DNA from: a candidate division WOR-3 bacterium
GTDB lineage: Bacteria; Hydrothermota; UBA3072; B12-G15
Length of the DNA: 54,123 nucleotides
Reading direction: 5' to 3'
Assembly: GCA_965649055.1 (NCBI GenBank)
Contig: CBFGJG010000001.1
Span: 1 to 54,123, forward strand
Notes under the pieces: model-generated
Seen by the model: the letters and a program-made list of their open reading frames with translations, nothing else
The model's database searches: none
Told to the model about the DNA's origin: nothing
Translations under genes and position numbers: made by a program
In this document: positions 4,576-35,000 of the stretch, piece after piece
Numbering within the stretch: position 1 is the first letter of the stretch
How the letters are laid out: every line of letters starts with the position of its first letter

Positions 4576-4989
4576 CTATCGGTGATACGGATGGTTATTC
4601 AGGATTGAAAATGCCCTGAAAATCTGTTCATAAAGCAAAACCCTTGCCAAATCATGTGGAAATGTCAACCTTGATAATGATAATATAAAATCTGCCTTCT
4701 TCTTCTCTTCATCATTAAAACCATCTTCATCTGCAATAAAAAATCTTATCGTTGAATACTTAACAAGTGATTTTTCAATGAATTTTGTAAATTCCATTGT
4801 ATCAAATTCCTTACCATTCTCATCAAGAAGAACTGTGTATCCTTTTTCAAGCAAGACTTTACTCAGCAACTCCCTTGATATCTCCCTCTCCTTTATATTC
4901 ACCCATTTTAAAGACATCTTTCTATAATGTTCTGCCATCTTCTTAACTTCCATATATTTTATCTTACCGACAGCAATAATCTCAATCAT
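4576..4989 (-). CDS. rlmH: 23S rRNA (pseudouridine1915-N3)-methyltransferase
   Basis: IIAVGK start, LDENGK, LSLSRLTFPHDLARVLLYEQIFRA, HPYH C-terminus. Confidence 0.93.
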   Translation of the reverse strand: MIEIIAVGKIKYMEVKKMAEHYRKMSLKWVNIKEREISRELLSKVLLEKGYTVLLDENGKEFDTMEFTKFIEKSLVKYSTIRFFIADEDGFNDEEKKKADFILSLSRLTFPHDLARVLLYEQIFRAFSILNNHPYHR

Positions 4990-5687
4990 TTCACCTCACT
5001 TTTCCATTCTTGGTGCCTGACACAAAATGTGGAAAAGTAGACTTTAAAGGTTTTTTCAAATGCCTTCTTCACTATTTCTTTGAATTCTTCAAGTTCTACT
5101 TTCCTTCCTGCTGCCTCTTTTATTGTTATCATACCCTGGCTCTTAGGAAAAGGCTCTTCCGGTTCATCAAGCATACAGGTTCCCTGTTGAAGACATACAT
5201 CCCTTCTCCTTGCCTGTGCAGAACCTATAAGTTTTTTTCCCTTGTAAGATAATTCATATATTGATATATCATCAAAACATAAATCACTTGTTGTGCTTCC
5301 TCTGCTTTCAGCCCTTTCTACCTTAATCCCGAGCATTTCAAATGCCTTCTTAAATCCTTCCGAGATTTTTTTATAAGATTCAAGTATTGTCCCACCAATC
5401 AATGGATTATCCCTTTTAAAACATATTGAATATGTGAAATCATTTGAATGTATCACTGCACGACCACCTGTTGGTCTTTTAACATAAGGATAACCTTTCT
5501 CATTCAGTTTTAAAACCCACTCAGGAATCTCCTGATTATGCCCAAGGGTTATTGAAGGTGGAGAAAAATTAAAGAATCTTAAAATTGTAATATCTTTATC
5601 CTTTATATAATCCATCAATTCTTCATCAAAATTCATATTGTAAACCGGGTCTTTAAATCCGGTATCTACAAAGAACCATTTGTTCAT
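4986..5687 (-). CDS. Lipoate-protein ligase family protein (LipM-like octanoyltransferase)
   Basis: NMNFDE, SITLG.NQ, KRPTGGRAVIH, KKLIGSAQ. No C-terminal LplA domain. Confidence 0.85.
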   Translation of the reverse strand: MNKWFFVDTGFKDPVYNMNFDEELMDYIKDKDITILRFFNFSPPSITLGHNQEIPEWVLKLNEKGYPYVKRPTGGRAVIHSNDFTYSICFKRDNPLIGGTILESYKKISEGFKKAFEMLGIKVERAESRGSTTSDLCFDDISIYELSYKGKKLIGSAQARRRDVCLQQGTCMLDEPEEPFPKSQGMITIKEAAGRKVELEEFKEIVKKAFEKTFKVYFSTFCVRHQEWKSEVK

Positions 5688-6322
5688 TAGAATATGAATC
5701 TAAAGAGGCGAAGTATAGAATCCCAAAGGAATGTTAATCTACCTATAAGAAGAGAAAGACGTGCCATAACTGTATATCCAAATGATGCACCCATTGCTAT
5801 CATTATAAAAACAATTCCTATGTTAGCACCAGCCCCAAGGAATCCTTTATGTTCCCTTGAAAAGAAGAAGTATAATAATGTTGTCAAAACACCAAATATT
5901 ATGATTATATTATTTATAGATTCCCATAAATTTCCTGTCCATAAAGATAATAAAGTAGCCTTGACCTGTGGAATGATGAAACCGTGAACACCACCTGTCA
6001 AGACTAAACCTGAACCAATACCCACTGTGAATGCAATTGACCATCTGCTTATCCAGGAAATCTTAGGAAACCATCTTGTTAACATAAGGACACCAAAGAA
6101 TAATGGAATAATAAGCCATACTGCACCTGGTTGCCTTGCAGCAATTGGTTGGATAACCATCTGTTTCACTTCAAAATGCCATATATATATAAGCCAGTAT
6201 GCAGCTGAATATCCCACATACAAATGTTCTGCAAATTTGTAAACAGGATTATCACCATATAAAAATGAAAGTATTGCTATTGTTAAACCACAAGCTATCC
6301 AGATTCCAATTACTTCCATCAT
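5687..6322 (-). CDS. Uncharacterised polytopic membrane protein, cassette subunit D (copy 2)
   Basis: Multiple TM helices; DNPVYKFAEHL, FFFSREHKG, MIAMGASFGYTVMARLSLLIGR. Paralog of 8869-9507. Confidence 0.8.
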   Translation of the reverse strand: MMEVIGIWIACGLTIAILSFLYGDNPVYKFAEHLYVGYSAAYWLIYIWHFEVKQMVIQPIAARQPGAVWLIIPLFFGVLMLTRWFPKISWISRWSIAFTVGIGSGLVLTGGVHGFIIPQVKATLLSLWTGNLWESINNIIIIFGVLTTLLYFFFSREHKGFLGAGANIGIVFIMIAMGASFGYTVMARLSLLIGRLTFLWDSILRLFRFIF

Positions 6323-7140
6323 TTTTTCCCCTTCCTTCTTAAAACAAAGAATGATATATTCCCAATCAATATGAATAATATTATCATAAGATGTGCATAT
6401 GTCTGTGATGCCATACCAACAAGACCTGAACCAGGGAATTCTATAAGTGTTTCATATTCAGCCGCACCTTTAAGACCACCAATAAGACCAACTATCTGAC
6501 CTGCCTGGAGATATGGATACTGCTCTGCTGCCATAACTGCTGTAACACCAAGTATTATCTTCTGTTTAAACCTGGTTCCAACATACTGAATCCAGTAATC
6601 ACCCATAACACCAGCTTCAAGACCTACCAAAACACCGATGTTATCATAATTCTTTATCTCATTCATAATAGGAAGTGAATCAAGTGGTTTACCGCCTAAA
6701 TCTGTAAAGAAAACCTTCTTTATATCTATACCCATCCTTAACATCACCGCTACATCACCGGGTCTATAACCTAAATTCACATAATCAACACCGTAAACTT
6801 TATTGAATTCTCTCGCAACCTCTTCAAGCCCCTGTGCACCAATCGGAACACCGAGTGGCCAGAAGTTTATAAGGACAACCTTCAAACCTTTCTTGAAGCA
6901 ATGCCTTAATATTGCTTTAAGCATTGGTTGCAATTCAGGCATAGATGCTGCATCATAATCTATGGATATCATTACAGCAGAACCTTTTGGTAGTTCATCT
7001 ATCGCCCTGTAAGCGCTCTTTACCTCTTCAGAAATTTTAACTGTTACTTTCAGATTAAATATAATAGGAATCAGAACAACAATACCAATAAGTAAAAATA
7101 TGTATCTTCTATCTATCTTTGTTAGTTTTTCCCATATCAT
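6319..7140 (-). CDS. Uncharacterised membrane-anchored alpha/beta-domain protein, subunit C (copy 2)
   Basis: IDRRYIF, MPEL.PM, GGLKGAAEYE, N- and C-terminal TM helices. Paralog of 9507-10358. Confidence 0.8.
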   Translation of the reverse strand: MIWEKLTKIDRRYIFLLIGIVVLIPIIFNLKVTVKISEEVKSAYRAIDELPKGSAVMISIDYDAASMPELQPMLKAILRHCFKKGLKVVLINFWPLGVPIGAQGLEEVAREFNKVYGVDYVNLGYRPGDVAVMLRMGIDIKKVFFTDLGGKPLDSLPIMNEIKNYDNIGVLVGLEAGVMGDYWIQYVGTRFKQKIILGVTAVMAAEQYPYLQAGQIVGLIGGLKGAAEYETLIEFPGSGLVGMASQTYAHLMIILFILIGNISFFVLRRKGKK

Positions 7141-7769
7141 GATAGATAAGTCCTTTCAATACCAAGTATCAACCTCAATGACATTGATATTGCTCCAAGT
7201 GCTATTCCAATCCTTATACCCCTTGCAGGCCCAAGTTGAAGGACATTTAAAATCCAGTCTGTTAAAGGTGTTATACCGGGAATACTTGAACCATACGGGA
7301 TTCTTCCAAGCATCACTATAACCGCTGTGATTAAAAGTAATGTTGCTATAAAATTCCTTGCCCTGAATGCCCTGTATGAAGCTGAAGCAACAAAGAAAGC
7401 AAGCAATGCAAACATCGTTGATTGTAAAGGAACAAGTATGTAATCGTAAAGATACCTGAAACTCGTTCCTTCTTTGAATGCATCACCAAATTTAACTTCT
7501 GATATTATCCCTGTAATTAGACAGGCAAAAAAACCAACATAGAAAACAAAACTGAACCAGAAACCTTTTTCCCTTCTCGCTATTTTTCTGTAATGGAACC
7601 TTAAAAGAGAATCAACACCAATGAGCATTGAGAAACCAAGTATAATTGAATACCATATTAAGGAATCATCCTGTAATTTACCAAAAGGTGGATGTGGAAT
7701 AAAGAAAGTTATAACGATAATTACACCTGTTACGAATGTTATTAAAAGCGGCAATCTTCGCTGTAACAT
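7137..7769 (-). CDS. Uncharacterised polytopic membrane protein, subunit B (copy 2)
   Basis: STMFALLAFFVASASYRAFRARN, RGIRIG, ILGIERTYL. Start at 7769 by TAATG coupling. Paralog of 10358-10975. Confidence 0.8.
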   Translation of the reverse strand: MLQRRLPLLITFVTGVIIVITFFIPHPPFGKLQDDSLIWYSIILGFSMLIGVDSLLRFHYRKIARREKGFWFSFVFYVGFFACLITGIISEVKFGDAFKEGTSFRYLYDYILVPLQSTMFALLAFFVASASYRAFRARNFIATLLLITAVIVMLGRIPYGSSIPGITPLTDWILNVLQLGPARGIRIGIALGAISMSLRLILGIERTYLS

Positions 7770-8872
7770 TATAACCACCCCATAAATGTTTCAAATATAT
7801 TCACAAATGCTGAATTACCAGTTAAGTTCATTATATTTGCAATGGTTGCAAATATTACCCCAAGACCAATAAATATCATAATAAACATTTTTCCATAATC
7901 AGAGCCTTTCACAGAACCCAGCATAACAGGTTCCCTTCCTATATATGAAGATGCTGCAAGTGTCTCTTCACCTATAAGGACATAATCACAAGCTGCAATA
8001 AAGAATGGAAGTTGTGTAGCAGCAGTTGTTCCTGCAATCTGAATAGCACCGACTGAATGACCTGTTTCTGCAAGTATAAGTGATTCTGCATAGAAGTATC
8101 CCTGTAAGAACACTGCACCAGGATTTTCCCTGATCATAAGGCCATCAACACCTGCAGTGTATCCAAATTGTTCGTATGTTAGATAAACTATATTCTTCTC
8201 GTTGAAATTATCAATCTTACCAACCTCTGCATATGCCTGCTTAACTGTTTCAGAAGATGCTGCCATAACTATCGGATCGTAGTTTGTAACTATGATAGGG
8301 GTATCGTATTCTGCTACCTTTGAAGACACCCTTCTTAAAATTGTTAATGCTGCAAGTGTCCCTGCATCTGTTATACCTGAAAGACCGTGTATAAAGAAAG
8401 TTGGTTTACCCATCTCTGTTGACCTTCCAACTGCTTCATCTATAGCATCAAGTGCCGGGATCTTTCTTATAAAAAGCCCCTCCGGATTCTTTCGGGCAAG
8501 CTGTATAAACCATATAACAAGACCTGAAAATATTATAAGAAATATAAGGACAGATGTCCTTGTTGTATCATACCATTGAGCCTTTGCTGAAACAGGTCCT
8601 GTATACAATACCAATGTTGTATCTTCAAACTGGAGCTCCACCTTGTAAAGATATTCCTTTGAATTTTTAACACCATCGTCTACATATTTATAGAGTGTCC
8701 TTGAAAGAATACCGATAAATTCAAATGTTGTATCTTCAGGTGAATTTCTGTAAACCAGACCGTTTTTGAGTTCTTTGTCAATCCCAAAGACTTCAATCGT
8801 AATACTACCACCACCATCATTCGGTGTATCATAGGATTTTATACTTAAAGAAAGTATTAAAAAAATCATCAT
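7769..8872 (-). CDS. FN3-like + DUF6754-like membrane protein, subunit A (copy 2)
   Basis: DTPNDGGG, EAVGRSTEMGKP, FYAESLILAETG, QLPFFIAACDY..IGEE. Start at 8872 by ATGA overlap. Confidence 0.8.
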   Translation of the reverse strand: MMIFLILSLSIKSYDTPNDGGGSITIEVFGIDKELKNGLVYRNSPEDTTFEFIGILSRTLYKYVDDGVKNSKEYLYKVELQFEDTTLVLYTGPVSAKAQWYDTTRTSVLIFLIIFSGLVIWFIQLARKNPEGLFIRKIPALDAIDEAVGRSTEMGKPTFFIHGLSGITDAGTLAALTILRRVSSKVAEYDTPIIVTNYDPIVMAASSETVKQAYAEVGKIDNFNEKNIVYLTYEQFGYTAGVDGLMIRENPGAVFLQGYFYAESLILAETGHSVGAIQIAGTTAATQLPFFIAACDYVLIGEETLAASSYIGREPVMLGSVKGSDYGKMFIMIFIGLGVIFATIANIMNLTGNSAFVNIFETFMGWL

Positions 8873-9507
8873 TTTATTATCCCGAGCCAATCATGCAGTA
8901 AGAACTGCATCCTACCAATCAATAAAGATACACGGGCCATAACCGTATACCCGAACGAAGCACCAAATGCAATCATAATATAAATAATTCCAACCCTTGC
9001 TGACTTTCCAAGTGCACCCTTATGTTCCCTCGAAAAATAGAAGAAGATAAGCGTAGTAAGGACACCAATAAATAGAACAAGAGAACTGAACCCTATAAGA
9101 AGAGAAGCAAAATTGCTCCTTGTGAGAATAGTCCCTTTAACCTGTTCAAATATATAGTATTCAAAACTTAGTGGAACACCTAATCCAGCACCTGTTCCAA
9201 TGTATATAGAAATTGGTATCCTTATAAGGAAAGAATGCCTCTTTGAGAAAATAAAAAACATTAAAAGACCTATTAAAATAGGAATTATAAGGAAAAACCT
9301 GTAAGGACTTGTCCCATCAACTATTGGTTTCCATATTTTACCTATGACAGAATTATACCATAATATTGTTGTTGTATAACCAACACCAATACCCATAAAC
9401 AGATGTTCTGCAAACTTATAGAATGGATTATCTTTATAAAGAAATGAATATATGAATAATGTCAAGATAGCTGCTATCCAGACCCAGATATCATTTGATA
9501 TATGCAT
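8869..9507 (-). CDS. Uncharacterised polytopic membrane protein, subunit D (copy 1)
   Basis: DNPFYKFAEHL, FFYFSREHKG, MIAFGASFGYTVMARVSLLIGR. Confidence 0.8.
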   Translation of the reverse strand: MHISNDIWVWIAAILTLFIYSFLYKDNPFYKFAEHLFMGIGVGYTTTILWYNSVIGKIWKPIVDGTSPYRFFLIIPILIGLLMFFIFSKRHSFLIRIPISIYIGTGAGLGVPLSFEYYIFEQVKGTILTRSNFASLLIGFSSLVLFIGVLTTLIFFYFSREHKGALGKSARVGIIYIMIAFGASFGYTVMARVSLLIGRMQFLLHDWLGIIK

Positions 9508-10358
9508 TATTTCACCTTCTTTCTCCTTACAACAAAGTAAGAAAGATTACCAAGTATAACTATCAGTATTATGTATATGTGAACGAAAGATTGTGCATCC
9601 ATTCCTATTGTTGCCTCCATCCTGCCCGTAGTTATACCATTATCTTTAAGAAGCTTCTCATATTCTGCAGCACCTTTAAGACCGCCAAGCATTCCTACAA
9701 GTTGACCTGTCTGTAACAATGGATAGTATTGTGCCGCAGATACTGCAGTTGTTCCAGAACCAATACGGGCACCATACCTCTGGTATGCATATGCAATCCA
9801 GGATTCAGTAAGAGCGGAACCTGCAAGGTCAATAACAACACCAATATTTTTGTAGTTATCAACCATTTTATTCAAAGGTAGAGTATCAAGTTTATTACCA
9901 TAGTAATCGTATTCAAATGTCTTATTTATCGATTCACCTATTTTTAAAATCACAAGTGAAACACCCGGGACATATCCCAAAAATATATAATCTTTTCCAT
10001 AAATAACATCCGGAAAATCAGGTAAAACTATTTCAAGTGCACGGACAGCCATACCGACATATGCAGCATAAAGACCACCGTGTAAGTATACTGGTATTTT
10101 CTTTGCAAAACAATGCCTTAATATTGCTGTAGCCATGGGTAAAAGTTCCGGCATAGTTGATGGGTCAAAATCAGTAACAAGATAAACTGCTTTTCCAGTT
10201 CCTTGAAGATTATCTACGTAATCATAAAGATTCTTAACAGGTGGAGTAATAGTTGTAGGCATTCCAACAGGAAAAAGCAGAGGAACAATTACAACAATCG
10301 CAACAGTAAGGTATATCCATCTTCTATCGATTTTAAGTAGCCACTCAAAGAATTTCAT
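9507..10358 (-). CDS. Uncharacterised membrane-anchored protein, subunit C (copy 1)
   Basis: IDRRWIY, MPELLPM, GTTAVSA, GMLGGLKGAAEYE, GMDAQS then a TM helix. Confidence 0.8.
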   Translation of the reverse strand: MKFFEWLLKIDRRWIYLTVAIVVIVPLLFPVGMPTTITPPVKNLYDYVDNLQGTGKAVYLVTDFDPSTMPELLPMATAILRHCFAKKIPVYLHGGLYAAYVGMAVRALEIVLPDFPDVIYGKDYIFLGYVPGVSLVILKIGESINKTFEYDYYGNKLDTLPLNKMVDNYKNIGVVIDLAGSALTESWIAYAYQRYGARIGSGTTAVSAAQYYPLLQTGQLVGMLGGLKGAAEYEKLLKDNGITTGRMEATIGMDAQSFVHIYIILIVILGNLSYFVVRRKKVK

Positions 10359-10975
10359 CAGTCACCTCCACCAAGATATGTCCTTTCTATTCCAAGTATT
10401 ATCTTTAAAGATGTGGCAATCATACCGAGACCAACACCTATTCTTATACCCCTCTGTGCAGCCATATTGGGATAATTCAATATCCATTCTACAAAATCAG
10501 GTAATTTTGAATATATATAAGGTGCTACAGATACCCTTCCAAGCATAACTATGGTTGCTGCAATTAGAAGTAATGTAGCCTCAAGGTTCCTTGCCCTGAA
10601 TGCCCTGAACGCAGCAGAAGCCATATAGAATGCAAGGAGTGAAAACATTGTTGCCTGGAGTTGTGCATACACATACACATACATCTGGTTAAAGAGATAA
10701 CCTTTTTTTGTAACAATACCTAAAATTGCCATGAATAAAAATGCAATAATTGCAACTATTGAAGCCCACCATCCTTCCCTTTTTCTTCTTATCTTATTTG
10801 TGTGATACATAACAAAACTTCTTAATGATAATATATAAAAGAATATTCCTATTATTATTAACCAATCGAGGACAACATTATAGAATTTTGTTGACAAAGG
10901 ATGTGGTATAAAATACTGAATTATCATTATAATACCACCAGTAAATGCCAGTACTAAAGGAAGTGTTCTTCTCAT
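10358..10975 (-). CDS. Uncharacterised polytopic membrane protein, subunit B (copy 1)
   Basis: ATMFSLLAFYMASAAFRAFRARN, QRGIRIG, ILGIERTYLG. GGAGG RBS. Confidence 0.8.
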   Translation of the reverse strand: MRRTLPLVLAFTGGIIMIIQYFIPHPLSTKFYNVVLDWLIIIGIFFYILSLRSFVMYHTNKIRRKREGWWASIVAIIAFLFMAILGIVTKKGYLFNQMYVYVYAQLQATMFSLLAFYMASAAFRAFRARNLEATLLLIAATIVMLGRVSVAPYIYSKLPDFVEWILNYPNMAAQRGIRIGVGLGMIATSLKIILGIERTYLGGGD

Positions 10976-10982
10976 TATCCTC

Positions 10983-12074
10983 CTATAATGTCTTGAAAAT
11001 ATTTATAATTATATTCCAGTTGAATGTAATGGCAAGAAAAGAACCAACAAAAATCAAAACAGCTAATGCTACCTTTCCTAAATCCTGTGCCTTTAAAGAA
11101 CCAACAAGTTTTGGTTCCCTTGAAAGATAGGCACTCGCAGCATAAAGTTCTTCACCCATAATTGTATAATCGCATGCAGCAACAAAGAAAGGTAATTGTG
11201 AAACCGCATCAGTTCCAGCTATCTGTATTGCACCTGTCATATTACCTGTCTCTGCAAGGAGCAGTGATTCAGCATAGAACATACCTATGAATAGATTCGT
11301 AGCCGGTTTTTCCCTCACCATAATTCCATCAACACCTGCCGCATATGCGAATTGTGCATCTGTCAAGAAGAATACATTTTCTCTTTTAAATGCATCGGGT
11401 CTTCCTGCCTCAGTGTATGCCTCTTTTACAACCTCCTGTGCAACTATAGTTACAATGGGGTCGTAATTTGGGACTATTAAAGGGGTTTCATATTCGGCTG
11501 ATTTCTTCGCAACTGGCTTTAAGATATTTAAAGAAGCAAGTGTTGCAACATCCGATGCACCTGATAGTCCCGGAACATACAATATTGGTTTTCCCATCTC
11601 AGTTGCCCTTCCAACTGCCTCTTCAAGATGGTCAAGACCTGCTATCCTTCTTATGAACAGAACATTCCCTCTTGCCTTCTGTGTAAAATATAGAAGTAGG
11701 AAAATATATATTAAAAGTGCAATAAAAGTATTAATCTTGTTCATCTTAAATAACTGGGGATAACATTTTGCTGGCTGTGATTCTATGGAAAAATCGGAAT
11801 AATTATTGTTTATATCAAGGCACCTAATCTTAAAAATATAATTTACATTATTCTTAAGACCATCCGCTTTATATGTTTCAGAACCTTTGGGGACATAATC
11901 GAGTATTTCAAATGAATCCATTCCTTCTTCCTTATAAAAAATCTCATAACCTGCGAGTGATTCGCTCTCAACCTTATCCCATTCAATAATAATATTTCCA
12001 CCACCATCATTAGGAACATCGTGTGCCCTAACATTGAAAGGTGGGTATATTGAGAATAGTAAAATAACTAACAT
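10983..12074 (-). CDS. Fibronectin type III + DUF6754-like membrane protein, subunit A (copy 1)
   Basis: PPFNVRA.DVPNDGGG, FN3 pattern (W..GY.I.Y..GL..Y.F.I), EAVGRATEMGKP, FYAESLLLAETG, QLPFFVAACDY. Confidence 0.82.
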   Translation of the reverse strand: MLVILLFSIYPPFNVRAHDVPNDGGGNIIIEWDKVESESLAGYEIFYKEEGMDSFEILDYVPKGSETYKADGLKNNVNYIFKIRCLDINNNYSDFSIESQPAKCYPQLFKMNKINTFIALLIYIFLLLYFTQKARGNVLFIRRIAGLDHLEEAVGRATEMGKPILYVPGLSGASDVATLASLNILKPVAKKSAEYETPLIVPNYDPIVTIVAQEVVKEAYTEAGRPDAFKRENVFFLTDAQFAYAAGVDGIMVREKPATNLFIGMFYAESLLLAETGNMTGAIQIAGTDAVSQLPFFVAACDYTIMGEELYAASAYLSREPKLVGSLKAQDLGKVALAVLIFVGSFLAITFNWNIIINIFKTL

Positions 12075-12178: not shown

Positions 12179-13489
12179 ATGCTTTTTATAATTTCTTTTT
12201 ATCCTGTTTTTTATGAAAATGGGATTTATAGATACATAAGAACTATTGAGAATGAAAATATTCCATATTCTTATGGTGTTGATATTGATTTTTACTCAGA
12301 AGATTCCTATAACAAAACTGGGATTATATTCAGAGTTGATACAATAAAAAGATTTACAATTGGCAACCAGTTATTAATTAACCAGAACGATTTCGGATTA
12401 AACTTCTTCCCGCTTGTTTCAGCAGGTAATGGTAAAGTTTTTCCGGATACAAAATGGAAAGGGAAATTGTATGGGGCAATTTATGATGGTTCTATATTCT
12501 ATAAAAATAAAAGATTTTTTGTTCTCCTCGGGAATACCCATATAAAATACACGACTGCACCTATAAATTCTCCAATCCTCTCAAATAATATACCTCCTTT
12601 ACCATTATTATTCTATAATGTAAAAATATGGAAGATGAATATTTCACATCTCATTTCAAATCTCGGTCTTTATAAGGGAACAAGGCTTGACCCAAGTCTA
12701 AATCCATATGATTCTATAAGTATACACAGATACTTAATGATACACAGATTTGAATTTAATTTTGATAAGATAGGTATTGGCTTAACAGAGATAGGGATAA
12801 TGGGAAGGGATGGTGGGATTGATTTTTATCTTTTTAATCCAATCGGAATAATCTATGAACATCAATTTAACTTTAGCGAAAACACCAATATAATGTGGAA
12901 CTTTGATCTTCATCTTCTTTATAAAAATCTTTACTTCTATTCAAACCTTTTTATAGATGATTTCCAGTATGAGTATGACCCATGGAATGAACCTAATCAT
13001 ATTGGCTTAAATACCGGGATAATCGGAAAGATAAATAGAAAATTATATACCCATATTGAATACAATATTTTTACAAGATGGGTATATGGACATTTCCTTG
13101 TATATCAGAGATACATATACAACGGGTATTCACTTGGGATTGACAATTCATCTGATTTTGACGAATTATCAGGGAGATTAATTTATAAGGGAGAAAAGGA
13201 AAATTATTATCTTACATTAAAATATAGAAGAAAAGGGGAAACAAATCCTGAGACACCCTGGCCGGTAACATACGATGATAGTATCGACACATTGAAATTC
13301 CCTGATAATAATTTTCTTTCTGGTAATGTTAAAAAAAGATATGTTTTTAATGTTGGAATGCAAAAATGTCTTAACATGTTTTACATAAATTTAGAGACAG
13401 GATTTATATATGAAGAGAAATGGAATCCTGTTATTAATGTTAGTTTAATTTCAAACTTAAAATTTAAAGATTGGAGAGGATATGAATAA
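12179..13489 (+). CDS. Outer-membrane beta-barrel protein, capsule assembly Wzi-like
   Basis: SPILSNN.PP, HRFEF, IGLTE, F.IDD pattern and alternating aromatic strands typical of the Wzi family. Confidence 0.6.
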   Translation: MLFIISFYPVFYENGIYRYIRTIENENIPYSYGVDIDFYSEDSYNKTGIIFRVDTIKRFTIGNQLLINQNDFGLNFFPLVSAGNGKVFPDTKWKGKLYGAIYDGSIFYKNKRFFVLLGNTHIKYTTAPINSPILSNNIPPLPLLFYNVKIWKMNISHLISNLGLYKGTRLDPSLNPYDSISIHRYLMIHRFEFNFDKIGIGLTEIGIMGRDGGIDFYLFNPIGIIYEHQFNFSENTNIMWNFDLHLLYKNLYFYSNLFIDDFQYEYDPWNEPNHIGLNTGIIGKINRKLYTHIEYNIFTRWVYGHFLVYQRYIYNGYSLGIDNSSDFDELSGRLIYKGEKENYYLTLKYRRKGETNPETPWPVTYDDSIDTLKFPDNNFLSGNVKKRYVFNVGMQKCLNMFYINLETGFIYEEKWNPVINVSLISNLKFKDWRGYE

Positions 13490-14569: not shown

Positions 14570-15025
14570 ATGAGTATTCTGGATAATGTTATTATTTTTT
14601 CATCATTAACAGAAGAAGAAAAAGAAAAAATTCTTTCAATTGCTGAAGAAAGAAAATTCAGGGCTGAAGATAAGATATTCAATGAAGGTGATGCAGGCGA
14701 CGGATTCTATGTTATAAAAAATGGAAGGGTAAGAATAAGCATATTCCTTCCCGATGTTGGTGAAGAATTACTTTCTCTACTAAAAGAAGGAAATCACTTT
14801 GGTGAGATGGCTATAATTGAAGATAAACCACGTTCAGCCTCTGCTATTGCTGATACAGAGACAACTTGTATTTTCTTCAACAAAGAGAAATTTATATCTA
14901 TAATGAAAGAAGATAAGAATATTGAAAACAAGATTTTATGGGAATTTGTCAAAGAATTTTCTTTCAGACTAAGGAAAACAGATAAGAAGCTTAAAGAGAT
15001 ACTACTACTTATTAAAACACTTTGA
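14570..15025 (+). CDS. Cyclic nucleotide-binding domain protein (no HTH)
   Basis: IFNEGD.GD.FYVI..G.V and FGEMAII...PRSASA. GGAGG RBS. Confidence 0.9.
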   Translation: MSILDNVIIFSSLTEEEKEKILSIAEERKFRAEDKIFNEGDAGDGFYVIKNGRVRISIFLPDVGEELLSLLKEGNHFGEMAIIEDKPRSASAIADTETTCIFFNKEKFISIMKEDKNIENKILWEFVKEFSFRLRKTDKKLKEILLLIKTL

Positions 15026-15880
15026 TATTGTTATCCTGTGGGTTAAAGGAAAATCCTCCTCATAATCCATCATAATAGCATAATAAAATTTAAGGTTTTT
15101 CAGATTAAAGCCCGAACCAAAAGATATTCCCCCTTTTTTAATACCAAAAAGAAAATCTACCATATCCTTATACGATATATTAATACCGAGTAGTGATGAT
15201 AATCCATAATCGTCCAAGATAAAATCAAAACAAGGCATTATTGTAAAATGATTTTTGTTAATTTTTAAAGATGAACCAAATTTAAGAGATGGATTTATTT
15301 TATCCCTGTTGTCTTTCCATAAAATCAAAGATGATGTTATATCCCTGAATGTTATACCAAATCTCAAATTATTCTTAATATAAAGTAAACCAAAATCAAT
15401 TCCACCTCCTATACCTCTTTCACCCATCAAATTCTCGTAAAATATTTTTAAATTCATACCATAATAAAGATTACTTAAGTTCTTTGAAATATTAAAAATA
15501 AATATATTCTGGAAAGCACTCTTATATATTATCTTTGAAGTATCAAGATACTCACCATCATCAAGTTCTCCATTACCATTAATGTCAATTAGTGCGTTCC
15601 TTGTATCAGGGATACCTGTTATTATATGATTGAACAAAAGAAATCCAAAACCATTGTTTTCCCTCTTCAGTGATCCTTTTACTGTGAATATATTACCAAG
15701 ACCACTGAAGATGTATCCACCATCTATTCCCAAAGATGTCATATTAAAAGATGAATATGCAGGATTATCAAATGATGAATTCGGTATGGATGAGGAGACA
15801 CCTGATAAGGCAAAATTTTTGGCATCAATTATCAGGTTCTGATAATCACCGGCAAAAACAGAGAATAGGAGAAAAATCAC
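15005..15880 (-). CDS. PorV/PorQ-like (UPF0164-type) outer-membrane beta-barrel
   Basis: A..ALSG..NPA, G.NLK, GGGIDFG, THRITIS C-terminus. Internal DINGNGELD Ca-binding-like loop. Confidence 0.6.
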   Translation of the reverse strand: MIFLLFSVFAGDYQNLIIDAKNFALSGVSSSIPNSSFDNPAYSSFNMTSLGIDGGYIFSGLGNIFTVKGSLKRENNGFGFLLFNHIITGIPDTRNALIDINGNGELDDGEYLDTSKIIYKSAFQNIFIFNISKNLSNLYYGMNLKIFYENLMGERGIGGGIDFGLLYIKNNLRFGITFRDITSSLILWKDNRDKINPSLKFGSSLKINKNHFTIMPCFDFILDDYGLSSLLGINISYKDMVDFLFGIKKGGISFGSGFNLKNLKFYYAIMMDYEEDFPLTHRITISKCFNK

Positions 15881-18513: not shown

Positions 18514-21500
18514 ATGGTTGCCGATTTTAAAAATTTAATAAAATTTTCTGAGGGGAAAACTTCGATTATTTATTATTCAAACGATAATCCTGAAATATTA
18601 TACAAAACAGGAGCTATTGAATATAAAGGAATCCTGAAAAGCCAGTATCATATTTTAAAAGATTTAAATTCAAAATTTTACCCTATAGTGTATGATTGGT
18701 TTGAAGATGATAAACATTGTGGATACACGATTGAAAGGATCAGGTATCCTGATATCAATAAATGGGCTATGAATGTTAATGAGAGTGAAAGATTAAAATT
18801 AATAAAAATAGTTTTGATAAACATACTCGAAGGATTGAATATATTGCATAAAAAAGGAATAGTTCATGGTGATTTGAAGCCTTCTCATATATTTGTCGGA
18901 GATGATCTGAATATTAAGATTATTGACCCTTCTATTGACAATGAACTTATAACACCTGAATATGCGGCTCCGGAAGTTTTTTCAGGGGAGATTGATTTTT
19001 CATCAGACATTTACTCATTAGGCTTGATATTCTATGAGGTATTAACTTCTGATTATTCATTTAAAGATATAAGGGAAAGAAATAAAAGAAAAATTACACT
19101 AAAGAATTACCTTGTCCCAAAAGAGATTAAAAATGTTATAAATAAGATGGTTGAATCTGATAGAAATAAAAGATATAAGGATATTGATAGTATCATTTCG
19201 GATTTGCTTAATCTTTCAATGACGATTGAACCCAAGTTTATAAATCATTTTGTCGGTCGCCAGAAAGAAATAGATTTCTTTAAAAATGTATTATCGGAAG
19301 AAGAAAACTTTTTATTCTTCGTTTCTGGTCCACGTGGAATAGGAAAAACCACATTAATGAAAAGGCTTGATGTTATCGCAAAAGAAATGGGCTTCCATAC
19401 AGGATTTATAAATGATATAGATGAAATTGATTTAAAAGATTCTAAAATTATTTTCATAGATGAGGTAAACATAGATGATATAAAGGAATATCTAAAAATA
19501 AAGTCAGACTGCCTGAAACTGAACAGGGTATCCCTTGTTATTTCTTCTCTGGAAGAATTGAAGATTTCGTCAGAAATAAAAGCCTACTATTTCAATCTTC
19601 AGCCATTATCAACAGAAGAAATAAAAAGTATTATAAGTTATAGCTTTAAGGACATATCAGGACTCCATGAAATTTCAGAATTTATCTTGAATATGAGTGG
19701 CGGAATACCTTTTTATACGAATTCCATATTAAATTTTCTATGTGATAACAAGTATATTTATTTTGAAAATAATTCCTGGAATGCTATTATTCCATACGAG
19801 TTAAGATATGACATAATTTCCGACCTGAGAAGGACATTTGAAGAAGAAGCAATTTACCTTTTAAAGTGCCTTTCTTGTTTTGAAGATTATATGCCTTATA
19901 ATATTGTTGAGTTAATTTCGAAAGATTATATTGTTATTTTAAAAAAATTAGTTAGTTTTAATTATATCTATATCTCAAAGAATAAAATAAGGTTCAGGTC
20001 TGGATTAATTAAAGAAGAGATAATTCGTATAACAGAAGAAGAAATCAAAAAATTGGTTTCAGATACAGTTTTGAAAAATAAAGAATTATTACCACCCGAA
20101 ATTGTCTTTGACTTCGCTATGAAAAATTATGATTATAATACTGCAAGAAAAACTTTATTAATTATGATAAAAAGAAACATAATGAATGAAAAGTTATCAA
20201 TCATAAAAAAGATAAAGAATTATCTTTCAGTAAAAGATGATCTTGTTCTAAAGATATTACTTGGATTTTTACAGGAAAGAACAGGTATAAATCAGGATGC
20301 AATAAAAACCTATCAGGAAATTATTAAAAATCTCGTAAAAAATGATTATTTTATTTTCAGGATAGGTGTGAACAAAAGGAAAATCGGTGATTTGAAGGAT
20401 GCAAGAGCTATATTTGAAGAACTCTTAATTAAAGATGCCCCATTTAAACAGCGTTTAATGTATGAATATGGAAGGATATTGATTTCTGAAAAAAGATACA
20501 ATGATGTCCTTTCGATTATAAACAATCTAAGTGGAAAAATACCTGAAATAAGATTTCTTGAAGCAATAATATACTTTGAAAAAAATGAATACAAAAAATC
20601 TCTTGAAATACTTGATGAATTTCTCTCTGAAATAATAGATGAAAGTTTAGAGGGAGCAATATATTCTTTAAAAGGTAATATCTATCACAAACTTAAGGAT
20701 TATCAAACCGCTATAAAAGAATATGAAAAGGGACTGGAAATATATAAAAAATTACAGGATAGGATGAATGAAGCAATAAACAGATTTAATCTTGGAAATG
20801 TATATATGTGTATTGACAGTTACGATAGGGCAATTGAAGAGATAGAGAAGGCATATTTAATAGTTAAAGGTTCAAACAATAAACAACTTGAAAAGAAATA
20901 TATCCTTTTACTTTCAACACTTTATTTAAGAAAAGGTAATCTTAAATATGCAATGGATATTCTGAATAAATTTTGCGAAAAGTATAACTTCAAGGATATA
21001 GATATAATAAAAAAGGAGTTTTATCTATCTCTTTTTACTGGAAATTTCTTAAATGCTGAAAGTTTAATAAATGAAATAACAGATGAAGAAAGGAATGCTT
21101 TAAAAGGTTATCTTTCGTTCTTCAAATGTGAATTTGACAAGGCAATCGAATGTTTTAATAATGTGATTCGCAAGAAAGATGACAGAGAAATATTGATGAT
21201 GTTATCATTATGTTATTTTTTCAATGATAGATTTACAAAAAGTAAAAATATTGTAGATAAAATAAAGAAAGAAGAAACAGGTTCTTTATTTGAAAAGGCT
21301 CAATTTTATATGATTTATGGATTATACGAAAGAGATTATCTGAAAAAGGCAAAGGAGTTATTGAAAGAGATAGGTGCTTATATAATTCTCGGTGAATGTG
21401 AAATGCTTGAAGGTTATTTGCTGATAAAAGAGAATAAAATAAAAGAAGGATTTGAACTAATCCTTAAATCACAGGAAACATTTAGAAAGAATTATGCTTA

Positions 21501-23013
21501 TGGATATCTTTACTGGTCTATTTCAATAACAAACTCATTAATAAAAACCCTGAATAAGAATAATCTTTATAATGAAATAGTCAGGATGTTAGAAAATCTG
21601 TTATCTTTGATTGACAAAAACGACCTTTATGGGTTCATAGAGATAATAAAGAACTTTTTCGGTGCTGAACGTGGTGCAATTATTTTAAAAAAAGATAGAG
21701 TTTATGGGAAAGATATGGACGAAATTACTTTAAATGATTTGAATGAAATTTCAAAAAGCGCTATAAAACTTGCTGAAAAAGGTGAGATTTTACTATCCTA
21801 TAACGCCGGTGAAGACGAAAGATTTATGGATAAAAGGTCTGTTTTCCTGAATAAGATAAAATCAATACTATGTGTTCCCATATTTTCTCGTGATAAGATA
21901 AAAGGAATACTTTATCTTGATTCAACAATAAATAAAAACCTTTTCACGGAAGAAGACAAAGACTTCCTTTTAACCATTGGAAGGTTTCTTGGAATCTTAC
22001 TTGATAAAGGTGAAGTTTATTTAAATCTTAAAGATAAGGTTGAAAAGTTTGACAGATTTATGAGCACAGACTTTTCATTCTATGGTATGGTTGGTATTTC
22101 AAGGAGTATGAAAAATATCTTTGAAAAAGTGAGGGAAATAGCACAATTGGAAATGAATGTCCTTATAACAGGTGAAACAGGAACTGGTAAAAATATGCTT
22201 GCAGAGATAATACATAAATTGAGTAAAAGAAAAAATGAAAAATTTGTAGTCGTAGAATGCACAACAATACCACATGAACTTTTTGAAAGTGAACTTTTTG
22301 GTCATATTAAAGGTTCTTTCACCGGTGCAACATCGGATAAGATCGGTCTTTGTGAAACCGCTAACAGAGGAACACTATTTCTTGACGAGATAGGAGATAT
22401 ACCTTTGAATATTCAATCCAAACTATTAAGGCTTATAGAACAGGGTGAGATAAGAAGTGTTGGTGATGTAAAATGGAAGAAGGTTGACACAAGGATAATA
22501 TGCGCAACAAATAAGGAACTTGAAAGCGCTGTCACATTCAAAGAATTCCGGGCAGACCTGTATTACAGGTTGAAACAGGTAGAGATACACATACCACCCT
22601 TGAGGGAAAGGATAGAAGATATCCCATTAATTATAGAAGAAAGAATAAAGATAATAAATGAAAAATTCGGCAAGAAAATTAAAGGTGTAAAAGAAGATTG
22701 TTTAAAACTCCTGTCAGAATACCCATTCCCTGGAAATGTAAGGGAATTGATAAACATCATTGATTCTATATGCGCTATAAAAAGAGCCGGTTATATCGAA
22801 ATAGAAGATATTATAGATAGACCCGAGTTGAACATATATATAAAAAATGGATTGGACATAAAAAAACAAAATATAGAAAAAAGGATAAAAATAATAATTA
22901 ATACATTACAAAAAACAGGGTGGAATTACAAGAAAACAGCAGAAATAATAAACATATCAGAAAGACACCTCTTCAGACTATTAAAAAAATATAATATCAA
23001 AAAACAAAAATAA
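18514..23013 (+). CDS. Multidomain sigma54-dependent activator: Ser/Thr (pseudo)kinase + P-loop ATPase + TPR + GAF + AAA+ sigma54 domain + Fis HTH
   Basis: HGDLKPSHI, YAAPE, SDIYSLG; FVGRQKE, GPRGIGKT, IFIDE; TPR array; SILCVP...LYLDS (GAF); GETGTGK, ESELFGH.KGSFTGA, LFLDEIG, FRADLYYRL, PGNVREL; C-terminal HTH. Confidence 0.92.
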   Translation: MVADFKNLIKFSEGKTSIIYYSNDNPEILYKTGAIEYKGILKSQYHILKDLNSKFYPIVYDWFEDDKHCGYTIERIRYPDINKWAMNVNESERLKLIKIVLINILEGLNILHKKGIVHGDLKPSHIFVGDDLNIKIIDPSIDNELITPEYAAPEVFSGEIDFSSDIYSLGLIFYEVLTSDYSFKDIRERNKRKITLKNYLVPKEIKNVINKMVESDRNKRYKDIDSIISDLLNLSMTIEPKFINHFVGRQKEIDFFKNVLSEEENFLFFVSGPRGIGKTTLMKRLDVIAKEMGFHTGFINDIDEIDLKDSKIIFIDEVNIDDIKEYLKIKSDCLKLNRVSLVISSLEELKISSEIKAYYFNLQPLSTEEIKSIISYSFKDISGLHEISEFILNMSGGIPFYTNSILNFLCDNKYIYFENNSWNAIIPYELRYDIISDLRRTFEEEAIYLLKCLSCFEDYMPYNIVELISKDYIVILKKLVSFNYIYISKNKIRFRSGLIKEEIIRITEEEIKKLVSDTVLKNKELLPPEIVFDFAMKNYDYNTARKTLLIMIKRNIMNEKLSIIKKIKNYLSVKDDLVLKILLGFLQERTGINQDAIKTYQEIIKNLVKNDYFIFRIGVNKRKIGDLKDARAIFEELLIKDAPFKQRLMYEYGRILISEKRYNDVLSIINNLSGKIPEIRFLEAIIYFEKNEYKKSLEILDEFLSEIIDESLEGAIYSLKGNIYHKLKDYQTAIKEYEKGLEIYKKLQDRMNEAINRFNLGNVYMCIDSYDRAIEEIEKAYLIVKGSNNKQLEKKYILLLSTLYLRKGNLKYAMDILNKFCEKYNFKDIDIIKKEFYLSLFTGNFLNAESLINEITDEERNALKGYLSFFKCEFDKAIECFNNVIRKKDDREILMMLSLCYFFNDRFTKSKNIVDKIKKEETGSLFEKAQFYMIYGLYERDYLKKAKELLKEIGAYIILGECEMLEGYLLIKENKIKEGFELILKSQETFRKNYAYGYLYWSISITNSLIKTLNKNNLYNEIVRMLENLLSLIDKNDLYGFIEIIKNFFGAERGAIILKKDRVYGKDMDEITLNDLNEISKSAIKLAEKGEILLSYNAGEDERFMDKRSVFLNKIKSILCVPIFSRDKIKGILYLDSTINKNLFTEEDKDFLLTIGRFLGILLDKGEVYLNLKDKVEKFDRFMSTDFSFYGMVGISRSMKNIFEKVREIAQLEMNVLITGETGTGKNMLAEIIHKLSKRKNEKFVVVECTTIPHELFESELFGHIKGSFTGATSDKIGLCETANRGTLFLDEIGDIPLNIQSKLLRLIEQGEIRSVGDVKWKKVDTRIICATNKELESAVTFKEFRADLYYRLKQVEIHIPPLRERIEDIPLIIEERIKIINEKFGKKIKGVKEDCLKLLSEYPFPGNVRELINIIDSICAIKRAGYIEIEDIIDRPELNIYIKNGLDIKKQNIEKRIKIIINTLQKTGWNYKKTAEIINISERHLFRLLKKYNIKKQK

Positions 23014-32008: not shown

Positions 32009-35000
32009 CTATTTTAATTTTATTATTTTCAATGTCTTTTTAAAATCCCCTGCTTTAAATTCCATAAAATATAAACCTGCCGGTAAGATTTTACCTTTTT
32101 CACCTTCTCCATCCCATATAATCGTTCCCTTTTTCATCTCATTTTTATTGAATTCTTTTACAATCCTTCCTGTTATATCAAAGATTTTTAATGAGGCATT
32201 TGTATTCTGTGGTATATTCATTGTTAAAACAAACTTATTCATACCTATGTTTGAATTTATAGAAAATTCAATTCTTTCTTTATTTTCATCAATCCCAACA
32301 TAATTATTCAGATTCCCGACTTCAATTGAAAGAAGTTTAGGCTCTGTTCCTGATTTTGTATTTTTCCTTTTAAATAAAACTTTTAATCTAATCTCATTGT
32401 ATGTTGTAAAATCATTTATATTAGATAGTGAAACAACAACATCTTGTGCTTGAGAATATATCCCTGTTGAATTGTTGGGGATAATATTATCAGGAATCAA
32501 TTCCCAGTTTTCTCCATTCTTATATTGAACCTGAATACCTATTGAATCTTCTCCTGATGATTTTTTTAATATTATATCGCCCCAGTTTGTCCTTTCATAG
32601 ACTTTCTTTATTTCATCAAATTTTATTGAAGAAGTTATTAAATTTCCTTCATTATTCGCAGGTTGATACTGGTCTGTGAGTAATATATTATCAACTGCAC
32701 AGGCAAATCCCCAGTGTGATGAAGCGGTGCTATCGCTGTAAAACCATGAGAACATCATTGAATCAGCAGGGAGCTCTGATGTCAAATCTATAATTTCTGA
32801 ATCTGCATTACTTGTCGTATAAACCATCTTATCTATCCAGTTTCCCCAAACATTATTAGTTTTCTTCCTTATCTTAAACCTTAATTTCTCTCCTTGCTGA
32901 TAAACCCTGAATCCGTAATAATATTTTATCTTTAATATCCCTTTAACACTACCTGTATATATAGGTTTTGTCCTTATCTCTTCATTATAGTTAATTACAT
33001 TAATACCTGCATCATCATCCGAATAGAATGCATAATAGTTCCCATAATCAGGTGGAGTGTATGAGCCAATATCGGTAGTTGTTCCAACGGTCCATTGATA
33101 AGAATCATTATTTCCATTTATCACAGACCAACCCTGTGGAACTGAACCTGATTCAAAATTTTCATTTAATAATGTATCTGTCAATGTTTGGGAAGAATAG
33201 CCAAGAATAATAGTATCCCCTTTAAGAACGGTCCCATTAAAGATATCATAAGAAAATTGTTTATTCTTACATTTAAACCATGAACATGTTCCTGGTGTAA
33301 GTGTTGTATCAATTGTGATAGATATGATATCCGAAAAACTACACCATAAATTTGAACCTGTATCTTTCGCCTTTATTTTTATCCAGTATGTCCTGCTGGT
33401 AAGAAGATTGTATGGAAATATAAAATTAATAGTATCTCCACTTTGATATTGTGTCGTTATAAAACTATCAGGTGTTGAAAAATTATACAAAGTATCCCAA
33501 TAGACTCCATAAATTATATTGTCATTTTGTGGATCTATAGAATAAAATGATATAGTAGGTCTTAAATCAGGAATCTTAACAAAATTAAAAGGCTTTATAA
33601 TCTCTGGTTTTGAAGCAATACCAAAATCACCCACAATTGCATATCCTTCATAAGGTCTATAATTATGTTTAGTAACAGTAACCCATAATGTATCACCAAT
33701 ATTTGAAGGTGTTATATTGAATGTGATATTTCCATCGTTGTCTGTGAAACCAACAAGGTGAATCTTTGGTATTTGTGTCGGAAGATATAAACACACAGTT
33801 GCATTACTCAATGGCGTTGTCCCATCTTTCTTTCTTACACTAACTATGAAATTAACATTAGTTGGTGAAACATATTCGCTATGCGTAACAATCATCGTAT
33901 CAGGAATATCAGTCCTTAAATCAAGAGAAGCATCCCCGAATATATGCCAGGTTTCAAGCATCTCAAGGTCTCCTGTCTGTTCATACATATACATAGAGCC
34001 ATTGAAACACAATCCACCTATAGTTGTTGTATTTTCCCTTTTAAGAAGTCCCATTGCATGGTTCTGTGATACAGTTGGTGGAACCCAAGATTGAGTTACT
34101 GATGCAGCATAAACACCTATTGCACCTTTTGGAGCAGTTGTTGTCCCTGCCCACATCCATGATTCTGCACAGCAGGTTGCGACTGCATCAAAATCACCAC
34201 TTAAACAGGCACAGAGATAAAGAAAAGGGAGCATATTTGTATTATTAAGATTATTCACATCTGTAACATCAAACCAGAATGCAGTGATTGTTCCAAAACC
34301 TGTCTCATTTCCATGCCCAATATGGTTTAATATACTCCTTCCATTATTTAATGCGTTCGTTATCATAGCATCGGTTCCCCAAGGTTCATAAACCTTTGTC
34401 ATTTCAGTATAGGTGTATCCAAGCAATGTATCTTTAAGCCAGTTTGCCCTTGTTGAATCCTGTGGGGTTCCTTCATTTGAAGCAGTTAAAATACCTTTAT
34501 GATACCAGTCCCAGTTTGAACCCATCGGTGGGTTTCTTTCATAATTTACAGTTCTAAAAATCTGTTTATCGATGTTTGTTTCTGAACTACCGGAAAACCT
34601 GCTTATGAATACATCTGGATAATTGTCTGAACCAGCTAAATATCCATAAACAGGGTCACAGGTTTCATCGTAAGAACCTGAAATAGTCGATACGAGATTT
34701 GCCTCACCAACAAGTAAAACCCAAGTAAGACCATCCGTATTGTATTTATTCTGTATCTTTGTCTTTATATTTGCAGATGTATTCCCAATCGTTGAAACAC
34801 TGCATATTTCAACATCAATCCCTTTCTTCATTTTCCATTGAACAAAATCCTTGAAGTTATCATAGTATGCATCAGCTGTGATTATAAGCATCTTACCCGG
34901 TGTATCATTAAGAAAAGGATATTTCTGTTTATAGTATGGAAAGTTAATGAAAAAATTCTCATATATTTCTGTAAATTCCCTTGATATCTTGTTATCCTTT

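Follow-up and report, generated by a model that had tools for sequence, protein, structure and literature searches.

The first 54,123 nucleotides (nt) of contig CBFGJG010000001.1 (the window) come from a candidate division WOR-3 bacterium (assembly GCA_965649055.1) and encode two complete copies of a four-gene membrane cassette, A-B-C-D, as eight open reading frames on the minus strand (12074-5687). The same gene order recurs in many phyla, and the cassette co-occurs with an actin-fold ATPase and a partner protein, which this genome encodes with intact nucleotide-binding motifs on another contig, C8. We consider it highly probable that these proteins form an ATPase-coupled machine with parallel modules. 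Whether A-B-C-D and the ATPase constitute a new type of ATP-driven importer of amino acids or peptides is, in our judgment, evenly balanced, as a genomic correlation is what points to the substrate. The genes of the two cassettes are listed below.

A1, 10983..12074, minus strand: 363 amino acids (aa); Pfam matches to DUF6754 (6e-114) and fn3 (3e-4); subfamily I.
B1, 10358..10975, minus strand: 205 aa; six transmembrane helices (TMs) predicted, N-terminus inside.
C1, 9507..10358, minus strand: 283 aa; TM, predicted outer six-stranded alpha/beta (Rossmann-like) domain, TM.
D1, 8869..9507, minus strand: 212 aa; six long helices, N-terminus outside (predicted).
A2, 7769..8890, minus strand: 373 aa from TTG 8890; DUF6754 (Pfam 2e-104); subfamily II.
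B2, 7137..7778, minus strand: 213 aa; 45% identical to B1.
C2, 6319..7140, minus strand: 273 aa; 44% identical to C1.
D2, 5687..6322, minus strand: 211 aa; 46% identical to D1.

An earlier sequence-only reading of the window had described eight closely set genes forming two diverged cassettes in the same order, and the coordinates, identities and short junctions agree with this. By BLASTP, the copies are 43% (A, E 5e-104), 45% (B, 1e-56), 44% (C, 1e-74) and 46% (D, 2e-51) identical; in DNA, the longest blastn piece is 521 nt at 68%. No third copy was found by BLASTP in the 2.08-Mb genome, which is 94% complete. Counted from A1-B1, the junctions comprise a 7-nt gap followed by overlaps of 1, 1, 22, 10, 4 and 4 nt. 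The likelier start of A2 is ATG 8872 (367 aa), in an ATGA overlap with the D1 stop, and that of B2 is ATG 7769 (TAATG), so the A2 and B2 junctions would be translationally coupled too. A scan for promoters and terminators stayed at chance level (37 vs 37.8 and 6 vs 4.3). The six motifs quoted in the sequence-only reading each occur once per copy, and its statement that the eight proteins carry no ATPase, iron-sulfur (Fe-S) or heme motif was borne out, as Walker A, CxxCxxC and CxxCH are all absent.

The cassette is an old and widespread unit. Neighbour and cassette counts refer to 96 loci (98 minus 2 duplicates) chosen by likeness to A, with kin included, and incomplete cassettes were left out before trees were built. 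The A-B-C-D order is found in 121 complete cassettes from these loci and in the two described here, 123 in all, across many phyla, and the tree distances of the subunits correlate with r 0.74-0.79, a value inflated by kinship. Among 151 genomes of the bacterium's own phylum, DUF6754 is found in 135 and D in 136, with one to six matches each; these genomes are drafts, and matches per genome do not equal copy numbers. D is missing only from one genus, g4 (0/15 genomes). Close homologues of C come from WOR-3 and TA06, and the other loci, among the best 80 of 593, include ones from metagenome-assembled genomes (MAGs) of Zixibacteria, Ignavibacteria, Poribacteria, Fermentibacteria, Edwardsbacteria, Eisenbacteria, Planctomycetota and Armatimonadota; at E<=1e-30, A has matches in 1,161 clusters built at 50% identity. 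Phylogenetic profiling and neighbourhood analysis, which had been proposed as checks, thus found subunit order and co-occurrence kept across phyla. The view of the cassette as a conserved membrane module lacking a functional description also held up: neither the gene set, DUF6754 nor PF13941, the Pfam family of the ATPase, was found described in the open-access literature searched.

Some loci depart from the standard cassette. A occurs without adjoining B-C-D in L053, L058, L090, L192 and L193, extra copies of A occur in L037, L038, L050 and L069, and A may be a subunit that can be exchanged independently of the others. Some loci contain extra C genes. In L178-L180, L182, L183 and L191, one to five related membrane proteins of 220-390 aa (cluster k7; 20 copies in 6 loci, without a Pfam family) lie between D and the gene for a small membrane protein, k0.

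The ATPase unit emerges from the neighbourhoods. The commonest neighbours in the 96 loci are a 600-aa GlmL/MutL-like protein of PF13941 (19), a 375-aa barrel-sandwich/KOW protein termed c1 in lower case, which is not subunit C1 (17), and a 120-aa protein, c4 (10); the usual arrangement is c4-GlmL-c1-A-B-C-D. In the present genome, contig C8 carries gcvPB-c4-GlmL-c1 and contig C44 carries a homologue of k0. In a second phylum (centre G151), the operon reads A-B-C-D-k0-c4-GlmL-c1 in 16 of the 20 loci read, 16 of which were chosen because c1 lies near A; in an unbiased count, 21 of 39 second-phylum genomes have c1 no farther than about 12 kb from A. Co-occurrence points the same way, although these counts include kin, are not independent and have no p-value attached. 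In the 151 genomes of the own phylum, 131 have both DUF6754 and c1, 4 only DUF6754, 1 only c1 and 15 neither; in 201 genomes of the second phylum, 39 have both, 1 only DUF6754 and 161 neither. A single match to c1 is found in 114 of 132 genomes, and PF13941 is absent in the three g4 genomes tested.

The ATPase itself matches PF13941 (MutL) at 3e-129 and also Hydantoinase_A, and is about 600 aa long including a C-terminal extension. Its motifs DxG..TTK (ATDCGSTTTK), DIGG.TTD (DIGGATTD) and GSGG, which we take to be the phosphate-1, phosphate-2 and adenosine motifs of the ASKHA superfamily, are 75-100% conserved in 34 ATPases, a count that leaves out the divergent paralogue loci L131-L137. It nevertheless falls below all three GlmL cut-offs (NF040745, 241/475; NF040744, 224/600; TIGR01319, 178/204). 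The partner c1 has weak barrel-sandwich (lipoyl/RnfC-type; RnfC_N E 0.006) and KOW matches, and a weak NusG/KOW match in the Protein Data Bank (PDB). In a divergent paralogue clade, GlmL and c1 are fused into single chains whose genes lie apart from cassettes (L131:7516-10521, 1001 aa; L132:7760-10612, 950 aa).

In the searches made, the subunits fell into no characterised transporter family. A1 and A2 are full members of DUF6754 (PF20539), with 380 and 349 bits against a gathering cut-off of 27, but this family has no assigned function and does not cover B, C, D or the ATPase unit. B, C and D exceed the cut-off of no Pfam or NCBIfam family, so that the match to a characterised transporter family named beforehand as a refutation was not found; A-D also show no match to BPD_transp, EcfT or S-component families and no Walker A. 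A sequence search of the PDB with A returned FN3 matches only, PDB profile searches with A, B, D and the ATPase returned nothing to E 10, and a search of the ESM Atlas with A returned DUF6754 clusters only.

Topology was predicted from alignment-averaged hydropathy and the positive-inside rule. A is predicted to have two TMs flanking a 200-residue cytoplasmic domain, with an outer FN3 domain ahead of them in A1, and C to have two TMs flanking an outer domain. B is predicted to have six TMs with the N-terminus inside, and D to begin outside; for D, hydropathy gives five TMs and the model six long helices. The AlphaFold2 model of C1 (pLDDT 93, pTM 0.88) shows a six-stranded alpha/beta domain between two helices, and that of D1 reached pLDDT 92 and pTM 0.67. 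The C model has no Foldseek match at E<=0.001, which excludes no family; its best fold match, to MT0777 (VIA Z 9.5, root-mean-square deviation (rmsd) 3.7, 140 aligned), is tied with TrkA and dehydrogenase domains and indicates a generic alpha/beta fold. The D model gives Foldseek E>=1.2 and at best Z 5.0, rmsd 3.8 and 63 aligned, which likewise excludes no family. In complex prediction with the DUF part of A, B and C, partner D scored 0.76, 0.76 and 0.82 and unrelated partners 0.00; a control with C replaced scored 0.62, and the prediction as a whole counts neither way. Large insertions in B and D fall in predicted outer loops, and C-D fusions contain a linker helix (P0121, P0142, P0173, P0182); both agree with the topology. 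Direct C-D fusions lacking such a helix (P0122, P0130, P0136) conflict with it and were disregarded as probable losses of a stop codon. The insertions include stretches of 200-400 aa in D's outer loop (P0127-P0189), FG-GAP repeats within B (L095:9791-11569) and a C-like domain inside the outer loop of B (L060:1255-2598).

A is the most conserved subunit, with a mean column identity of 62% vs 32-39% for the others, and its outer region can be as short as 28 or as long as about 1000 residues, containing FN3 domains, PQQ-like propellers or nothing recognised across the loci. The sequence-only reading had stressed conserved charged residues in or next to TMs. Conserved polar residues do lie in or beside the helices of B, C and D, but most of the invariant charged residues of A and C are located in soluble alpha/beta domains instead, those of A in its predicted cytoplasmic domain. 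The invariant residues of C1 are E71, Q219, E234, H260 and N271; the conserved residues of B1 are S120, R124, R127, R175 and E197, and those of D1 are S21, N27, E34, Q122, S159, T188 and R192. The opposite orientations of A and C and of B and D suggest, as a hypothesis, an inverted pseudo-symmetric build. It is put no more strongly because hhalign detected no homology between A and C or B and D (probabilities 0.6-2%); A and C do align in register over their first three strand-helix units (p 0.09).

For the substrate, two predictions of the importer reading were tested, namely that carriers need amino acids from outside and that they often lack known importers. HisD and IlvD are absent in 13/13 carriers (6 families) and present in 3/3 genomes of g4, the only genus without D, and controls were found in 14/14. 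In g4, a his/trp/aro block lies upstream of exbB (L196:9626-18992) and a leu/ilv block beside ppdK (L197:5100-10128); amino-acid synthesis genes are far more numerous in this WOR-3 lineage than in the others tested. The g4 proteins HisD, TrpE, AroA, PheA, TrpA, AroQ, AroB, LeuA and IlvD have no match in the present genome. G052 is a carrier that belongs to a sister genus and has the same tandem. In the 1.37 of about 1.6 Mb read from it, HisD, TrpE, PheA, DAHP synthase, TrpA, TrpB, AroQ, AroB and IlvD were not found, AroA gave one weak match (E 7e-5), and another gene stands at the syntenic site. Because only 5/7 controls had clear orthologues in G052 (RecJ gave a distant match, IlvE none), some of these absences may be unread sequence.

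As for known importers, 68 of the 151 genomes are without OppA, all of them with D, and in three genomes that are 96-98% complete and hold three cassettes each, OppA, OPT, POT, APC, NSS, AGCS, SBP_bac_3 and DAACS are unmatched. OppA matches number 3-6 in g4 vs 2-3 in five sister genera, and OPT is found in 0/7 vs 5/5. In L113:740-14200 (and the near-identical L115), an oligopeptide ATP-binding cassette (ABC) system is interleaved with c4-GlmL and c1-A-B-C-D, and in L096:12734-15293 oppD/F-like genes follow D; in the neighbour cluster c5 ('ABC ATPase', 9 loci), a mixed family, only these loci are of the oligopeptide type next to D. In the window itself, two genes on the minus strand (32009-35566 and 42843-45314) encode large secreted proteins that resemble gingipain-type peptidases with sorting tails, and a PorV/PorQ-like gene (15005-15880, minus strand) is recognised by weak NCBIfam matches; together they are consistent with protein scavenging.

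Several observations weigh against an amino-acid or peptide substrate. The contrast between loss and prototrophy is one lineage and one event, seen in 3/15 g4 genomes and 1/5 sister genera (86% read), and G052 keeps LeuA/C/D. LIV-type binding proteins and SSS symporters are still found in the three genomes poor in transporters, and the present genome has 3 OppA, 1 OPT and 1 APC matches as well as an NSS match. (The NSS match, at G000:C2:25143-26544, falls into two frames, 55 and 495 aa long, owing to a frameshift or an assembly error.) The linkage to Opp genes amounts to two independent cases, and no substrate-binding family is recognised in the outer domains of A or in C. The system is also present in a Ca. 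Anammoxibacter MAG and in Poribacteria genomes of 5-6 Mb, carriers that are presumably not auxotrophs. Finally, a WOR-3 strain in culture, sy37, failed to grow when polypeptone or casamino acids replaced yeast extract, which would count here if sy37 carries the system; the strain is described as having 'few ATP-binding cassette transporters' (PMC12285271).

The same ATPase-coupled machine could have another job, such as importing a different class of solute, exporting substances, assembling the envelope or serving as a membrane-anchored scaffold, which we regard as possible but doubtful. All of the linkage evidence is neutral on substrate, and the variable outer region of A with its FN3 domains and propellers, the big outer insertions in B and D and the lone A genes suit a surface or envelope role equally with capture. 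In MreB-MreCD, PilM-PilNO and the Hsp70-Tim44 motor, an actin-fold ATPase is likewise coupled to membrane partners; unlike those systems, whose partners have no sequence match to A-D, the present module occurs in several diverged copies. For a housekeeping scaffold, one to six diverged copies with subfamily-specific residues would be surprising, and so would its complete loss in the sole genus with amino-acid synthesis genes.

An improbable alternative is a stand-alone ion-coupled transporter or membrane enzyme that works without an ATPase, as the sequence-only reading proposed. The eight proteins contain no nucleotide motif, the cassette often lies away from the ATPase genes, as it does here, and the polar residues in and beside the helices of B, C and D would suit such a function. 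However, the step from 'no ATPase' to 'ion-coupled' is unsupported, because an ATPase with intact motifs co-occurs with the cassette and is encoded on C8. Only 5 of 175 DUF6754-positive genomes are without c1 and only 1 of 171 c1-positive genomes is without DUF6754, all of them drafts, and the cassette forms one operon with the ATPase unit in many lineages.

The two copies in the window are an inherited pair of old paralogues, and their duplication is ordinary inheritance. In a tree of the 123 concatenated cassettes, they fall on opposite sides of the deepest split; in a 26-row IQ-TREE analysis, subfamily I forms one side of a branch (SH-aLRT 96), the root being given by midpoint only. A recent local duplication is rejected, as a tree joining the two window copies has p-AU 1e-7. 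For each subunit, copy 1 is nearest to copy 1 of the relatives and copy 2 to copy 2, and the tandem order is kept in relatives of the same family, order and class. Asp289 of A is present in 83/83 subfamily I cassettes vs 1/40 subfamily II cassettes; A1 carries it after AGT, and A2 has Thr at this position. Other subfamily markers lie in the inner domain of A and the outer domain of C. The sequence-only reading was thus right that both copies are intact and diverged, but the duplication is ancient and not particular to this genome.

That reading had offered two explanations for the pair, a hetero-octamer or two specificities, of which the latter fits better. An obligate hetero-octamer of subfamily I and subfamily II cassettes is decidedly improbable. 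Both subfamilies do occur together in 22/27 multi-cassette loci, a pairing that mixed complexes would also explain and that counts against separate modules, and the tandem is retained among relatives. However, 5/27 of these loci hold only subfamily I, and many genomes give a single match (each of the 6 in family f28, 5 in f31 and 40/40 second-phylum positives); those of the second phylum are mostly subfamily II by motif, with 20/21 of the motifs read. Since the subfamilies are old and each occurs alone, two parallel modules sharing one motor are the better explanation.

The operon continues beyond D2 with two genes, the first of which overlaps D2 by 1 nt and the second gene by 4 nt.

Lipoate-ligase A/B catalytic-domain protein, 4986..5687, minus strand: Pfam LplA-B_cat 2e-27; coupled to D2.
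rlmH-type SPOUT methyltransferase, 4576..4989, minus strand: Pfam SPOUT_MTase 7e-35; tail of the operon.

The first is a recurring neighbour but no fixed part of the system, and the second lies outside it. Upstream, a divergent gene (12179-13489, plus strand) is related to Wzi-like outer-membrane proteins, and such genes flank cassettes in 5 other loci. Farther on, 18514-23013 (plus strand) encodes a 1499-aa protein that we read as containing kinase, NTPase, TPR, GAF and sigma-54 activator domains.

The lipoate-ligase-like neighbour bears on a highly improbable reading in which the system serves cofactors, either by reactivating B12-dependent mutases and handling cobalamin or by supporting lipoate and glycine cleavage. 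The MutL match of the ATPase, the gcvPB gene that precedes the ATPase genes here and in kin, the lipoate-ligase-like gene that follows D in 7/96 loci and the weak lipoyl/RnfC-type match of c1 all suit it. Mutase reactivation is largely refuted, however, as the ATPase is under all GlmL cut-offs and PF06368 (glutamate mutase E) is over its cut-off in 0/5 genomes; no B12 mutase adjoins the ATPase, and the present genome has only one weak B12-binding match. PF09043 and PF16552 were also found in 0/5 genomes, a weak result as their controls gave no match. Dependence on glycine cleavage is rejected, because GcvP persists in 13/15 g4 genomes without the system, so that the gcv neighbourhood does not signify dependence; Gcv and ligase neighbours are also absent from the 20 loci of the second phylum. 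In L129:9743-11173 and L130:7130-9916, gcvPB stands apart from gcvT-gcvH-gcvPA, which are on another contig.

In a minor clade of divergent GlmL paralogues, a GntR-type helix-turn-helix is fused N-terminally to the paralogue and followed by a shortened c1 (L039:10083-13218, L137:3004-6196), and in L039 the fusion lies directly upstream of a tandem cassette. A transmembrane signalling device with the actin-fold protein as its sensor or regulator, as the regulator Mlc works with PtsG, would account for these fusions but is very remote, as the main ATPase has no DNA-binding domain and is 70-74% identical between families, and the fusions are better read as possibly a regulator derived from the ATPase unit.

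Among known systems, group II ECF transporters and ABC importers follow a similar logic, with one soluble ATPase unit for several interchangeable membrane modules. The present system differs from them in that its motor is of the actin fold, with no ABC ATPase and no match to their membrane families. Rnf and Nqr bear a surface likeness only: two predicted six-TM subunits facing opposite ways, an anchored domain on either side of the membrane and a soluble barrel-sandwich subunit are shared, but Fe-S and heme motifs and any family match are lacking, B1 and D1 contain no Cys, and the alignments show no conserved Cys in B or D. GlmL/MutL, Or-4 and the diol and glycerol dehydratase reactivases share PF13941 or ASKHA motifs with the C8 ATPase, which differs from GlmL/MutL in its scores, in having no adjoining or detected mutase and in being tied to a membrane module. 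MutL/GlmL is described as a mutase-reactivating chaperone (PMC4682846), and reactivases as remodelling their partners in an ATP-driven manner through a swiveling domain and subunit swapping (PMC7674605).

In the importer that we propose, each A-B-C-D set would likely form its own complex, likely powered by the shared ASKHA ATPase unit encoded on C8. C and the outer domain of A would gather the substrate, B and D would form the membrane path with six spans each in opposite orientations, and the ATPase with c1 would dock on the cytoplasmic domain of A. By analogy with the remodelling of targets by B12-enzyme reactivases, the ATPase may drive a conformational cycle. The two copies would be parallel modules that differ in specificity and share a single motor, much as group II ECF transporters do.

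Among characterised solute transporters, we know of none that is powered by an actin-fold ATPase. Tentatively, and with somewhat less conviction than the importer reading itself, we suggest a third kind of primary-active importer beside ABC/ECF and P-type systems, with an actin-fold ATPase of the B12-reactivase lineage and interchangeable, perhaps pseudo-symmetric modules bearing a Rossmann-like domain on each face. It would be a main amino-acid or peptide route of auxotrophic WOR-3 and many other uncultured lineages, and the two subfamilies, which a single invariant aspartate of A distinguishes, would take different substrates. The machine, present as a module in 136 of 151 sampled genomes of the phylum, is of interest rather than its duplication, and the tandem provides a ready test pair of two subfamilies with one motor in one genome. 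If the proposal is true, it would correct the widespread 'glutamate mutase L' mislabel of the ATPase and account for the nutrition of auxotrophs that have small genomes and few known transporters.

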